The notes under the pieces: generated by a model
The model's input: the letters and a program-made list of their open reading frames with translations, nothing else
The model's database searches: none
Told to the model about the DNA's origin: nothing
Virus record (IMG/VR): IMGVR_UViG_3300024279_000007
Span: 676-64,675 of that record
Strand: one strand, 5' to 3'
DNA from: a virus
DNA: 64,000 bases
Shown here: piece after piece, positions 3,809-29,367 of the stretch
Layout of the letters: each line of letters begins with the position of its first letter
Position numbering within the stretch: position 1 is the first letter of the stretch
Made by a program: the position numbers and the translations under genes

Positions 3809-4993
3809 ATGGCCGGACTGGTGAACGACGCCACGGGTCAATCCACCCCATACAACGCGGCACAGGCTACGACAACGAACGCCACGGCTGGACAGGCTAC
3901 GTCAACGGACGCCAAGGCTACCGGCTATGACGCCGCGCAGTCGCAGGCCGCGCAGTATCAGGCAACCACGGGCAACGCCGCGAAAGCGAATCTGGCCACG
4001 AACACCATTGACAACAGTCAGACGGTGGCGGGTCAACTGAAGGGGCTGATAGACGATAACAGCCCGCTGCTGCAACAGGCCCGCGCACAGGCACTGGCCA
4101 ACGCCAACTCCCGTGGTCTGCTGAACAGCAGCATGGCAGAGACCGGCGCACAGTCGGCGGTGCTGTCACAGGCCATGCCGATTGCACAGCAGGACGCGTC
4201 TACGAATTTCACCAATAACACCAATAACACCAACGCGACGAACCAGAACAGCCAGTACAACGCGACGAACGAACAGGACATGACGAAGACCAATCTGGGC
4301 CTCGTCAACAACGCCAGTCAGTTCAACGCGGGCAATCAGCAGCAGACCAATCTGTCGAACCAGTCAGCCACGAATCAGGCTGAACAGTTCGGCGCGGCAG
4401 CAGGGAACGCCGCATCGTCGCAGAACGCGCAGCAGGCCACGCAGACCAGCCAGTTCAACGCTGGACAGCAGACTTCGGTCAACCAGTCGAATGCGTCTGC
4501 CGCGAACAGCAACAGCCAGTTCAACGCCCAGCAGTCAAACGCCGCGCAGCAACAGGCAGCGGACAACGACTTCAAGGCGTATCTGGACACGCAGGACAAC
4601 AACACGAAAATCCAGCTTCAGGCGATGGACAGCGCGAACAAGACGCAACTGGCGCAGATTCAGGCGCAGTACCAGCAGGCCATGCAGTCCAGCCAGTCGG
4701 CCAATGCGATCTACACGCAGTCCCAGCAGCAGATCAGCGCCATCATGTCGAACAAGGATATGGACCCCGGTGCGAAGCAGAAGGCGGTTGACCAGCAACT
4801 GGCGATGCTGCGCTCGGGTATGGCGGTCGCGGGCAGCGTGGCGTCCGTGGACCTCGGCACGCTCCTAAATTTTGACGCAGGGGGTTCGGCGGCTACTCCC
4901 TTCTCTGGTATCGCGCCGCCACCCCCGCCGCCACCCGTATTTACTCCTGAACAGGGGTACGACTACAACAACGGCTATAACAACCGGCACTGA
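3809..4993 (+). CDS. Internal virion / DNA pilot protein
   Basis: Q/N/A/T-rich with repeated SQFNA motifs; first gene of the ejection cluster. Confidence 0.6.
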   Translation: MAGLVNDATGQSTPYNAAQATTTNATAGQATSTDAKATGYDAAQSQAAQYQATTGNAAKANLATNTIDNSQTVAGQLKGLIDDNSPLLQQARAQALANANSRGLLNSSMAETGAQSAVLSQAMPIAQQDASTNFTNNTNNTNATNQNSQYNATNEQDMTKTNLGLVNNASQFNAGNQQQTNLSNQSATNQAEQFGAAAGNAASSQNAQQATQTSQFNAGQQTSVNQSNASAANSNSQFNAQQSNAAQQQAADNDFKAYLDTQDNNTKIQLQAMDSANKTQLAQIQAQYQQAMQSSQSANAIYTQSQQQISAIMSNKDMDPGAKQKAVDQQLAMLRSGMAVAGSVASVDLGTLLNFDAGGSAATPFSGIAPPPPPPPVFTPEQGYDYNNGYNNRH

Positions 4994-25361: not shown

Positions 25362-25398
25362 TATCTCCAAAGGTTCAGTTCACAAGAGGTTCAAAGGT

Positions 25399-26733
25399 TC
25401 ATTCCTCAACTTCAAACCCTTGTCCAGCCGCATCCTGTGGCGGTGTGTACACCGCACGCGGATCGGACTCGGGCACCAGCACCGGTTTGCCTGCCGGTTT
25501 CACGATCAGTGATCCCAGCATGCGCTCCAGTTTCTTTGCGCCATGCACCAGCGCAGTCATTTTTGTGATTCCCAGCAGCTTGCGGGGTTCGTAAATCTCC
25601 GCTTCGCTATAGCCTTCCATGCGCAGCATACGCGCAACACGTGCGTTATCAGCATACTTCCTGTTGCTGCGTCCTTCAACCAGTTTCCAGCCCTTCACCG
25701 GCCTGCCTCGGGCGGCGCGCTCCTGTGCCCACGCCTTCAGGTCAGCCGCCCACTTCGCCAGATGGTCAGCCTCGGGCAGCACGTCTTCCACTTCCCGGTC
25801 AGTCATCAGGGCGACTTCCTTCGCATACTTGGCCATGTCCAGTCTCGCGTCCGCGCGTGCGCGGCAGTTGATCTTCGCCTTGCAGAAGCGGCACGTCTCG
25901 GGATCACTGGCATCGAACTCCACCGGCTCCAGCGTGTCACCCGTGAGTGACTCCCAGACCTTCGCGGCCACGGGAGCCAGCACCCGGTCTGCCCAGCGCA
26001 GTAGCTGTTCAGTGCTGATAATCCATGTCTTCACGTTGCCGATGCGCGGCTGGTAGACAGTGATCCTGAACTGTTTGGGCTTCAGGCCCATTGCCACCAG
26101 CTTCTCCCAGACGCCCAGCGAATACAGCATCGTCTGTTCGTTGTCCTCGACGTGCACCAGCACACCCTTGCCGTGCTTGTAGTCGTTCACGTCCGCGACT
26201 GCATCCCGCAGGAAGTAGCACCAGAAGTCCGTCGTGCCGAATCCTTCCGGTACCCAGCGCGAGAAGTTCACCCGTTCCTCGACACCATGCAGGATGAACT
26301 CGGAGCCGAACGCTTCTACCGCTTCGATCCGCTCCATCACATAGGAGACGTACTCCTGCACGTGGTCCTGCATGTCCACGGGGTGCTGTTCTTCGAACCT
26401 GTCCAGCGCTGCTTCTACTTCGTCACGTGTCAGGTCGTTATCGTCACCCTGAATCACGATCTTGCACTGTTCAGCATGCATCCACTGATCGACCGTAATA
26501 CGCTGCGCAATGCACTCGGATGCCATGGTGTGGGCGCGAGTGCCTTCCGCACTGTACTCGGTGGCCATGTCGGGAAAGTGCGCTTCCATCCACGCTGACG
26601 CGGTGCAGTTCATCCAGCGGTGCGCGCCGGACGCGGACAGCTTCGCGTGCTCGCGGTCAATGGCATGAACATCGTCCAGATCGCGGTGAATCGCTTTCCG
26701 CACCGGGACAACGGTGATGGGGCGCACTTTCAT
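25399..26733 (-). CDS. DUF2800 Cas4-like PD-(D/E)xK exonuclease
   Basis: HAKLSASGAHRWMNC, EGTRAH, GFGTTD, DYKHGKG, N.Q.MLY, CRFCKAKINCRAR. Confidence 0.9.
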   Translation of the reverse strand: MKVRPITVVPVRKAIHRDLDDVHAIDREHAKLSASGAHRWMNCTASAWMEAHFPDMATEYSAEGTRAHTMASECIAQRITVDQWMHAEQCKIVIQGDDNDLTRDEVEAALDRFEEQHPVDMQDHVQEYVSYVMERIEAVEAFGSEFILHGVEERVNFSRWVPEGFGTTDFWCYFLRDAVADVNDYKHGKGVLVHVEDNEQTMLYSLGVWEKLVAMGLKPKQFRITVYQPRIGNVKTWIISTEQLLRWADRVLAPVAAKVWESLTGDTLEPVEFDASDPETCRFCKAKINCRARADARLDMAKYAKEVALMTDREVEDVLPEADHLAKWAADLKAWAQERAARGRPVKGWKLVEGRSNRKYADNARVARMLRMEGYSEAEIYEPRKLLGITKMTALVHGAKKLERMLGSLIVKPAGKPVLVPESDPRAVYTPPQDAAGQGFEVEE

Positions 26734-27548: not shown

Positions 27549-27959
27549 TTAGTCCAGCGCGCGGCGGCGCGACTTGCCAGCGCCTTCCACGATAGCCTTG
27601 ATGGCTTCATACACCTTGACACGGACCGCTGCGGACTTCTTCTCCAGACCGCTGATCGACTCGGCACCCGTGTCGCTGATGATGGCGATGGCCTTGTCCT
27701 GATCATCGTCCGACTCGATCTTCGACGCGAGTTCGCGAATCTGGTCAACCGTGTAGTCCGGGCCTTCGTCCGCACCTTTCTCGTCCTTGCCTTTATCGTC
27801 CGCACCCTTGCGGCTACGGCCACCCTTGCCGGACGATTCCGCGCCCTTGTCTTCGGCTACGACAGCGGCGGCTCTCTCTGCCGACAGGCCAAGGAAGGCC
27901 GATGCAGCCTTGAACACTTCAGCTTGGCTCTCGCCCGTGAAGGTGATGGAAATGGTCAT
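27549..27959 (-). CDS. Hypothetical protein of APSE-type replication modules
   Basis: Low-complexity linker then YTVDQIRELA...GAESISGL; usual position upstream of DUF2800. Confidence 0.7.
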   Translation of the reverse strand: MTISITFTGESQAEVFKAASAFLGLSAERAAAVVAEDKGAESSGKGGRSRKGADDKGKDEKGADEGPDYTVDQIRELASKIESDDDQDKAIAIISDTGAESISGLEKKSAAVRVKVYEAIKAIVEGAGKSRRRALD

Positions 27960-28008
27960 GGTAGTTCTCCAGTTATATGGAATTGATTACAGCTTAGGGA
28001 AGTAGCGC

Positions 28009-28170
28009 TCAGGTGCGCAGGGTAGTCTGCTGTCCAGACGGATCAGCAGGCATGGGGGTACGCGGGCAGTCAGCAGCCACGGAGACAAACATGGCACGCA
28101 GGATGATGCCCCACGCAATGAAGGCGACGGCGAAGGAGATAGCCCACGTCGTGGGTCTGATCTTAAACAT
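28009..28170 (-). CDS. Small membrane protein (53 aa, MFKIRPTTWAISFAVAFIAWGIIL...)
   Basis: Single TM helix; read manually, a different frame from the ORF-track entries here. Confidence 0.5.
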   Translation of the reverse strand: MFKIRPTTWAISFAVAFIAWGIILRAMFVSVAADCPRTPMPADPSGQQTTLRT

Positions 28171-28227
28171 AGGTTCAACTCGCACAGGTTCAGGTTCACA
28201 GGTTCAAGGCAGGCGCTGCACCTATCC

Positions 28228-28880
28228 GCAGCTTTAACGTGGCTGGTCGCAACTCCAGCTACTCCACAGTATGCTGTTCAGCACATCGGACGCACTGAAC
28301 CTCGCCGTGGTATGAGTAAGCGTTTTATCCGCTGCCCTACGCGATGTTCGACCGGGCAACCCCAGCAGCCATAGTCCGTACTACCACGTGACTACCCGCC
28401 AGTCTTACGCTTGCTACTTATTCACCGCACCGACTGTTTCTCAGTACAGCGCCTGCATTGGAGCACACGACTTGCGCCGGTGGAACAGGTAATCAACCCG
28501 CCCCACGCTAAACCGTTGCTTACGCTCCCCAGTGACTAGCTGGACAGCCGCAACTGCCGTCTGGACCGGGTGGTCAAACCCGGCTCATGTGCTCCAATTC
28601 AGGCCCGATCCATTCAATGCTGGTCTGCCCAGCGATATCAGTGCGCCTTGGTGTATTCCGCTCGACGGGTAGGTTGAAAGCCTTCCGTACCGGGTTAATC
28701 AGCGCGACGCACTTACGGCCTGTCACCTGAACGGATCGGTAGAAGGGCGCGGTCTGGCTTCCGCCGTGTCCCGCCAGCAACTGAATGCCGTGCCCTTTTA
28801 TCGAAGCGCTCTGACACTCTGCCGGGGCCGAAGCCCCGGTTTCGTGTTCTCTCCCGCCCCTGCTACTTCACGTGCTGCTG
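28228..28880 (-). ncRNA. Candidate large structured non-coding RNA (~650 nt)
   Basis: No credible ORF; end-to-end closing helix, 11-13 bp long-range helices, G-U pairs on the minus strand, UUCG and GNRA loops, own promoter. Confidence 0.7.
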
Positions 28881-28886
28881 ATGTAC

Positions 28887-28914
28887 ATACTACACGATCC
28901 GTTCAGACATGCAA
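28887..28914 (-). promoter_or_regulatory. Putative promoter of the ncRNA, TTGCAT-16-TAGTAT
   Basis: Predicted +1 near 28880, matching the 5' strand of the closing helix. Confidence 0.55.
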
Positions 28915-29286
28915 GCATGAAATCAACTGATCGACGCGCTCACGCAACATGACCAGACGATCCTCGGCATGCGTGATCACGGAGACGACGCGCGAGACGC
29001 CCGGTTCCGGTGCCGGTGGCTGCGCCGTGCCCTGCTGGCTGACCGACCGTTCTTCCATGACCGTGGCCAGCCGTACTTCCAGTGCACCGACTGTCAGGTC
29101 CAGTCCGTTGACGACAGCGTTGAGCCTGTTCAGCGCTGCTTCCATCGGGGTCTGGGGGCGCACGTCGGCGTTGAGGTTGGTCACTTCCGCGTCTATGTGC
29201 ATCTTCTCCTGTTGATCTGCGCGCATCTTCTCTTTGAGTCGGCTGTAGCTTTCTCTGGCGGTCTGTCCGCTGTTCATTGTGTCCAT
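28903..29286 (-). CDS. Hypothetical coiled-coil protein
   Basis: GGAG RBS; first gene behind the 29339-29367 promoter. Confidence 0.7.
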   Translation of the reverse strand: MDTMNSGQTARESYSRLKEKMRADQQEKMHIDAEVTNLNADVRPQTPMEAALNRLNAVVNGLDLTVGALEVRLATVMEERSVSQQGTAQPPAPEPGVSRVVSVITHAEDRLVMLRERVDQLISCLHV

Positions 29287-29338: not shown

Positions 29339-29367
29339 ATCTTAGGAAATCACGGTTGCGCTGTCAA
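29339..29367 (-). promoter_or_regulatory. Sigma70 promoter TTGACA-17-TAAGAT with a second CGTTGACA copy 20 bp upstream
   Basis: TGTCAACGT direct repeat at 29362 and 29382; divergent control region. Confidence 0.8.

Follow-up and report, generated by a model that had tools for sequence, protein, structure and literature searches.

A large modular structured RNA encoded in an early operon of soil phages

Genomic setting of the element

The window analysed here is a stretch of 64,000 nucleotides that covers almost the entire length of a complete 65.9-kb virus record in IMG/VR. The source phage carries phage replication genes and has a G+C content of about 58%. A structured RNA element of approximately 653 nt, spanning positions 28209-28861 of the minus strand, is located inside a long minus-strand operon of early replication and recombination genes. 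This operon is composed, in order, of a 127-aa ORF, the gap that holds the element, a 53-aa hydrophobic ORF, two ORFs without assigned function, a DUF2800/PD-(D/E)XK exonuclease, an Enc34/gp2.5-type SSB, a DUF1643 protein, and DNA polymerase A. The opposite orientation is found for a Cro-like gene and for the gene of a D5/PriCT primase, the latter at 1.5 kb from the element. Pfam and PHROGs searches with the neighbouring proteins gave no RNA-related function.

Two promoter-like sites precede the element (Table 1). The strong one is located about 480 nt upstream and faces a divergent plus-strand site and the Cro-like gene. An earlier note on this DNA, made from the sequence alone, had assigned to the RNA a promoter of its own. 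The site it pointed to (TTGCAT-16-TAGTAT) does exist, but it is weak: its -35 hexamer is poor, a consensus scan does not report it, and it is conserved only in the relative L002, where it precedes a 69-aa gene. No promoter is present at this position in L004 and L009, in which the RNA starts directly after the upstream stop codon. There is no conserved promoter 5' of the RNA, and no terminator is found 3' of it in the window. On the plus strand, the UUCG hairpin and a T-rich run (28821-28840) score as an intrinsic terminator, which could stop antisense transcription into the RNA.

Other features of this region deserve mention. A lysine-rich gene of 67-69 aa lies between the upstream gene and the RNA in L002 (2551-2760) and L005 (3426-3629); the window is devoid of it and only retains the spacer that precedes it (28862-28902, minus strand). 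Besides the UGAACC repeats that follow the RNA, a second cluster is present at 25372-25401 (minus strand), directly 5' of the SSB start codon. Each cluster has three or four repeats, and they may constitute a translation or regulatory signal. The octamer CTGRACAG appears 155 times in 64 kb (5.5 expected), on both strands and throughout the genome, at a density of about one per 410 bp; the copies inside the element are at 28274-28281 (minus) and 28540-28547 (plus), and variants of the octamer are also scattered through the non-coding gaps of the relatives.

Table 1. Features of the element and its surroundings (positions in the window).
Feature	Position	Strand	Remarks
Strong promoter-like site, TTGACA-17-TAAGAT	29339-29367	-	Head of the operon; 10/12 consensus matches
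Upstream 127-aa ORF	28903-29286	-	Relatives examined have an ORF of ~80-120 aa before the gap
Weak promoter-like site, TTGCAT-16-TAGTAT	28887-28914	-	Read from the sequence; overlaps the last codons of the upstream ORF
Whole conserved structured RNA	28209-28861	-	Five helix-closed modules; homologous gene-free stretches in L002/L003, L004, L005/L006, L009
H1, hairpin CCGGGGC-UUCG-GCCCCGG (28839-28822) plus ACAC/GUGU extension	28812-28861	-	85% identity to L002 over 41 nt
H2, branched, closed by AAGGGC/GCCCUU	28743-28797	-	Holds a GGC-GGAA-GCC hairpin and the GCGGGACA motif; 90% identity to L009 over 82 nt
H3, 13-bp closing helix (28739-28727 with 28617-28605)	28605-28739	-	Covaries in L002, L005/L006, L009
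Module C	28639-28713	-	Invariant internal loop GUCGCGCUGAUUAACC ... GGAAUACACCAAGGC, covarying outer stem, variable tip
D1, 154-nt domain	28451-28604	-	Six helices; invariant loops UUGAC and CUAGUCA
D3, conserved 3' core	28209-28456	-	P1, P5, P6, P6 inner hairpin, P7 and invariant joining strands
P1, long range, 13-14 pairs	GCAGGCGCUGUAC 28456-28444 with GUGCAGCGCCUGC 28221-28209	-	Compensated changes
P5, AGCG-GAUAAAA-CGCU	28333-28319	-	
P6	28310-28305 with 28269-28264	-	Compensated changes: window CCACGG/CUGUGG; L002 CGGCAG/CUGCCG; L004 CUGCGG/CCGUAG; L005 CGACGU/ACGGCG
P6 inner hairpin	28300-28276	-	
P7, GCUGG-AGUUGCGA-CCAGC	28259-28242	-	Compensated changes: window GCUGG/CCAGC; L004 GCGGG/CCCGU; L005 CCGGG/CCCGG
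Four UGAACC repeats	28172-28206	-	Located 3' of the RNA and before the next start codon; also found after the RNA in L002, L004, L005, L009
Downstream 53-aa ORF, hydrophobic segment	28009-28170	-	Predicted small membrane protein; similar small ORFs after the gap in L002, L004, L005, L009, L014, L017

The element in related phages

Relatives of the source phage were found through homologues of its exonuclease (83% to 42% identity), in independently assembled contigs of JGI and Logan. In all contigs with sufficient upstream sequence, which represent eleven distinct phages, a gap of 0.4-1.7 kb without genes occupies the same place. The preceding gene codes for about 80-120 aa (174 or 210 aa in two phages) and the ORF that follows is small and hydrophobic. 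Homologous RNA is present in six contigs, L002/L003, L004, L005/L006, and L009, whose gaps share 68-70% identity with the window overall and 85-90% in islands, and strictly invariant motifs (AGUAGCRAGCGUAAGAC, CGGAUAAAACGCU, UUGCGA, and GCUAGUCAC) alternate with variable stems. Two further contigs, L014 and L017, have parts of it: domain D1 and some other pieces in common with the window. L015 carries a reduced D1-like module (38 bits), and the gaps of L011, L018, L019, L229, and two relatives from IMG/VR, L125 and L126, are occupied by other sequences.

The family is small, consisting of about seven independent lineages that are metagenomic throughout, and it occurs in a narrow clade of soil phages with genomes of about 65 kb. 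A sequence search of runs found close copies of the element region in soil metagenomes exclusively, and none of the RNA runs searched contains the element sequence.

In some of the more distant relatives, the syntenic slot contains tRNA genes. For instance, tRNA-Glu and tRNA-Asp are found in L015 (4439-4726) and L019 (2366-2523). In L015, 7 nt separate the end of the reduced D1 from tRNA-Glu, and RNase P would therefore release this module. In L017, a long non-coding stretch ends in a tRNA-like element (3960-4040) followed by U-CCA, with the acceptor CGGGGUG/CAUCCCG, the T arm CGGGG-UUCGAUU-CCCCG, and a 4-nt loop at the position of the anticodon loop. ARAGORN missed this element, and it matches the mascRNA-menRNA model only weakly (21.5 bits, the threshold being 42.5; E 0.11).

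Another conserved non-coding piece, with 82-83% identity and absent from the window, is shared by L014 (4009-4104), L017 (4401-4513), and L019 (3064-3256). It is located downstream of a Sequestin-family gene in L017 and L019; none was called in L014. Genes of anti-defence type (Tad2-like, Gad2, and Sequestin families, as assigned by Pfam) occur downstream of the slot in L014, L015, L016, L017, and L019. Since the early operons of the relatives hold such genes, the neighbourhood is, judging from these family assignments, partly a counter-defence region.

Structure of the RNA

The element is a conserved, strand-specific, multi-domain structured RNA. From 5' to 3' it is a chain of five modules, H1, H2, H3 (with module C), D1, and D3, each of them with its own closing helix. 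The fold of the minus strand is unusually stable in the window, with an MFE z-score of -4.0 versus -3.0 for the plus strand (values obtained with 20 shuffles only).

The D1 domain shows strong covariation. In an alignment of eight sequences, 36 of the 49 pairs show changes on both sides; 92.7% of the cells are paired, compared with 71.8% in shuffled alignments and 35-40% when the partners are slid one to three columns, and none of 500 shuffles reaches the observed value on any of five measures. This alignment had been fitted to the model, which biases it in the model's favour, but checks on unfitted alignments agree. For seven sequences aligned by MAFFT without fitting to the model, RNAalifold gave 49 pairs, 29 of them changed on both sides, and 8 of the 20 highest-covarying column pairs (of 15,931) in the unfitted alignment belong to the model. 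The covariance model of D1 derived from the seven-sequence alignment, called R1, scores 120-152 bits in the window, L002, L004, L005, L006, L014, and L017, and 38 bits in L015. The perfect pairing of AUUGGAGCACA (28598-28588) with 28467-28457, already seen in the single sequence, is borne out by the relatives: 97% of its cells pair in the eight sequences and 12 of 17 pairs are changed on both sides.

The loops of D1 are nearly invariant, and UUGAC and AGUCA are retained even in the divergent L015. These two loops could establish a contact of four pairs (UGAC/GUCA). A GCAGG segment has alternative partners, either CCUG 5' of D1 or CCUGC at the 3' end, each alternative with one compensated change, in L005.

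The D3 domain aligns in all six full members. RNAalifold proposes 52 pairs for it, 15 with changes on both sides; this covariation is based on four lineages, and several variable hairpins are not alignable column by column. The pairs given by MAFFT and RNAalifold in these variable hairpins are unreliable and are not claimed here. Helices P1, P6, and P7 covary. Two pairings between invariant strands of D3, GUAAG/CUUAC and UACUC/GAGUA, were dropped, since they are uncompensated in the relatives. The pairing of UCGGUGCGGUGAAU with GUUCAGUGCGUCCGA was also rejected: its first arm is invariant, the second (28300-28286) varies without compensation and forms a covarying local hairpin instead. Of the pairing of AAGGGCACGG with CCGCGCCCUU, the outer six pairs are kept and invariant, whereas the remaining ones are not.

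Both domains identify the strand. In D1, 305 of 337 cells pair on the minus strand versus 269 on the plus strand, and G-U pairs number 40 versus 4. In D3, the corresponding figures are 290 of 310 cells paired versus 250, and 47 G-U pairs versus 7. The alifold energy is -62.6 kcal/mol for the minus strand versus -40.1 kcal/mol for the plus strand. Since D1 and D3 pair better on the minus strand, the RNA has the same orientation as the flanking genes, which is the one originally suggested by G-U pairs.

The 5' modules are more variable. The C(UUCG)G hairpin of H1 (28822-28839) is present as described, and L002, L004, and L009 retain its CGGGGC/GCCCCG stem but differ in the loop. H2 occurs as a variant in L002, and both H2 and H3 are absent from L004, which is equivalent to L009 minus these two modules. 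The closing helix of H3, formed by CCGAUCCGUUCAG (28739-28727) and UUGAAUGGAUCGG (28617-28605), was first recognised by its G-U pairs and is now supported by covariation in four lineages, its counterparts being CCGAUCCUUUCA/UGAGAGGAUCGG in L005, CCGAAGCG/UGCUUCGG in L009, and CCGGAGUACAG/CUGUACUUCCGG in L002. With respect to the GNRA loops that had been listed, GGAA caps a hairpin, whereas GCAA and GUAA are situated in junctions or internal loops of the model.

Module C is present in the window, L002, L005/L006, and L014, and its position relative to the other modules differs: the window has it within H3, L005 carries it on the 5' side of H3, in L002 it lies far toward the 5' end, and in L014 it follows the core on the 3' side. 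The interior of D1 is a different one in L009. Further exchanges were observed in contigs of near-identical strains from other soil samples (X2-X5). In X2, X3, and X5 the D1 interior (28465-28590) is replaced by 20 nt and the closing helix is extended to a perfect 14-bp hairpin. In X4 a short unrelated insert takes the place of module C and the closing helix of H3 is retained. X4 also carries the P6 and inner hairpin of L002 type, which points to recombination between lineages; for this reason these changes were not counted as independent. Because its own helix closes each module, modules can be deleted, swapped, or re-ordered without harm to the rest, and exchanges that respect helix boundaries are a prediction of selection on RNA folding.

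All the strings quoted in the earlier note are found on the minus strand at the coordinates it gave, but the limits it proposed (28228-28880) had to be revised. The 5'-3' helix thought to close the molecule (28878-28869 with 28241-28228) can form (-11.7 kcal/mol) but is not conserved. The spacer that contains its 5' arm is homologous to the spacer before the 69-aa gene of L002, a gene that L005 has too. The 5' ends of the relatives differ, and conservation of the element extends from about 28861 to 28209; since P1 closes the 3' domain, the RNA ends near 28209 and not at 28228.

Coding capacity and searches for known RNAs

The element is non-coding. The longest open frame in 28200-28900 has 68 aa, no gene was called in the gap on any relative (about ten contigs), and no reading frame is conserved among them, in agreement with the early assessment that no credible ORF lies here. 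Mismatches with each relative are spread evenly over the codon positions (39/47/53, for example), without three-base periodicity, and indels are mostly of one or two bases, most of them not multiples of three. Therefore, the idea of a decayed or unusual protein-coding gene, in favour of which only short open frames could be cited, faces the absence of a conserved frame, of periodicity, and of called genes, as well as the indel lengths, and its probability is negligible.

The whole window gave no match to the 4227 models of Rfam 15 (cmscan) at gathering thresholds, a set that covers GOLLD, ROOL, OLE, HEARO, raiA, group I/II introns, RNase P, tmRNA, 6S, and Y RNA. This agrees with the initial failure to place the RNA in any family. 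With E values up to 10, the region 27900-29200 gave three chance-level matches, the best one of 20.2 bits against a threshold of 51. Ten relatives yielded ordinary tRNAs only at gathering thresholds, and according to ARAGORN and Rfam the window is without tRNA, tmRNA, or tRNA-like domain.

Searches for additional copies were carried out at several levels. A blastn search of the region against GenBank phages gave no matches; the closest versions of the neighbouring exonuclease in those phages share less than 40% identity. Locus searches in IMG/VR with single proteins returned no loci, and profile-based searches with the exonuclease returned 160 loci of distant phages, none with the D1 domain. 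R1 detected no D1 domain over 184 distant-phage loci (1.54 Mb), its only match being to the closing helix (25.8 bits) in L021, which is the IMG/VR copy of the L009 contig. An exact scan of viral contigs with AGTAGCRAGCGTAAGAC recovered only the L009 contig and one chance match; two further motifs gave chance matches only, and a 23-base D1 pattern gave none. Exact-motif scans produced no matches in the metagenome collection and 24 in bacterial genomes, all of them due to chance. Within the phage, the search for antisense targets revealed no complementarity above chance.

A screen of viral RNAs (PMC10690425) describes 10,006 unnamed candidates and a requirement of at least three unique sequences. 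Seemingly only two copies of the element exist in IMG/VR, below that minimum.

The combination of conserved synteny, strand-specific covariation, and zero Rfam matches leads to the conclusion that the locus encodes a structured, multi-domain RNA of about 650 nt outside any described family, as the earlier note had proposed. That it is a real structured RNA of a new family is very probable, newness being judged against Rfam, with the PMC10690425 candidates outside the comparison.

Possible function

The best explanation for the whole set of results (with a probability of about 0.6) is a modular RNA of a new family, transcribed with the operon, that acts in trans as a stable scaffold or decoy. 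The RNA would be transcribed as part of the early operon from the site at 29367-29339, perhaps also from the weak internal promoter. It would then be cut from the polycistronic transcript and accumulate as a stable trans-acting RNA. This release would parallel that of the tRNAs and the tRNA-like element found in the same slot of more distant relatives. As a scaffold or decoy, it might bind a host or phage partner, possibly linked to tRNA or translation, or a defence factor; self-assembly in the fashion of GOLLD and ROOL is also conceivable. The likely working surfaces are D3 and, in D1 and module C, the loops and junctions, because these parts are nearly invariant. If the RNA is a real member of a new family, an action in trans is somewhat favoured, and its size, its modularity, the near-invariant loops and joining strands, and the tRNA-bearing slot would speak for it. 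The broader picture can be entertained tentatively: helix-closed, exchangeable cassettes, shuffled between phages like protein domains, would be released in a tRNA-like manner to form a decoy, a scaffold, or a self-assembling particle acting in trans.

The same structured RNA might act only in cis, within the early polycistronic mRNA, for instance by protecting or processing the transcript, by modifying the polymerase as put elements do, or by controlling translation of the small membrane protein and later genes, with a possible participation of the UGAACC repeats. The structural evidence is equally compatible with a role inside an mRNA. The element is internal to the operon and lacks both a terminator on its 3' side and a conserved promoter on its 5' side; an ORF for a small membrane protein follows in L002, L004, L005, L009, L014, and L017; UGAACC repeats precede the start codons of this small ORF and of the SSB gene; and the alternative pairings of GCAGG would suit a switch. 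However, with about 650 nt and five modules the RNA is far larger than known leaders with such roles, close relatives differ by deletion, swapping, and re-ordering of modules while the neighbouring genes stay unchanged, and in some more distant relatives the slot is filled by tRNAs, which act in trans. A role restricted to cis is rather unlikely, also when the RNA is granted to be real and of a new family.

Other explanations are considerably weaker. ColE1 RNA II is a structured transcript that primes DNA synthesis at a nearby origin, and an RNA that primes or licenses replication in this style might be envisaged here, since the element would resemble RNA II in size and degree of folding, heads an operon with exonuclease, SSB, and polymerase genes, and is close to the primase gene. 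Nevertheless, the phage has a primase of its own, there are strains without D1 or module C, nothing ties the 3' end of the RNA to a DNA start, and the composition profile, the one feature inspected for an origin, shows no AT-rich or iteron-type signature. Such a replication RNA is quite improbable, whether taken among all explanations or among those that accept a new RNA family. Still less probable is a DNA-level element (an origin, a packaging site, an array of protein-binding sites, or a single-strand origin) with incidental RNA-like signals. The region is non-coding and near a divergent control region, in a genome full of the octamer CTGRACAG; but the compensatory changes in helices spanning up to 250 nt and the strong strand asymmetry (G-U versus A-C) speak against it, and the octamer is not enriched inside the element, where two copies in about 650 nt equal the genome average.

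Relationship to other large RNAs and significance

To our knowledge, very few bacterial or phage RNAs exceed 400 nt besides rRNA, RNase P, tmRNA, and introns. Each of OLE, GOLLD, ROOL, raiA, and HEARO opened new structural or functional ground. GOLLD is phage-borne and located near tRNA islands; its 3' region is conserved, whereas its 5' region is variable. ROOL is a large RNA of phages and prophages, often near tRNA islands, with unknown function and no known protein partner. The element resembles GOLLD (RF01998) in being longer than 600 nt, ornate, and phage-borne, and, in form only, in its conserved 3' core (D3) with H1, H2, H3, and module C present, absent, or re-ordered. In some more distant relatives the slot contains tRNAs or a tRNA-like element, which recalls the tRNA islands near GOLLD and ROOL; the window itself has no tRNA. 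However, the element gives no match to the covariance model of GOLLD even when E values up to 10 are admitted, and it belongs to soil phages with a G+C content of about 58%. Like ROOL (RF03087), it is encoded in a phage, but it does not match the ROOL model and consists of a chain of helix-closed, exchangeable modules. The likeness to GOLLD and ROOL is thus one of kind, not of family.

Parallels for the release of the RNA can be found elsewhere. Phage T4 RNAs C and D (species 1 and 2), from the tRNA cluster, are stable RNAs of about 140 nt and unknown function that share a transcript with tRNAs, from which the enzymes of tRNA processing release them. This is the mode of release proposed for the relatives L015 and L017, but the T4 RNAs are much shorter and the RNA of the window has no adjacent tRNA. 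The 3' end of MALAT1 is defined by RNase P at a tRNA-like element. The non-coding stretch of L017, ending in a tRNA-like element plus CCA, recalls MALAT1/MEN-beta and its mascRNA-type element (RF01684); however, these RNAs are eukaryotic, the match in L017 is weak, and the window lacks the element. The put elements of HK022 are promoter-proximal, cis-acting sequences of about 70 nt with two stem-loops. Like the element, they are positioned early in a phage operon, and in put the folded RNA acts on the apparatus that synthesises or reads the transcript; the element is about ten times larger and modular.

The element would represent a further class of large structured RNA, whose domains behave as movable cassettes. 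Strains lacking or exchanging single domains are ready-made deletion mutants, and the modules, being compact and well defined, make the RNA a good target for cryo-EM and chemical probing. The occurrence of tRNAs or a tRNA-like element in the corresponding early-operon slot of some more distant relatives bears on the question of why large phage RNAs travel with tRNAs.
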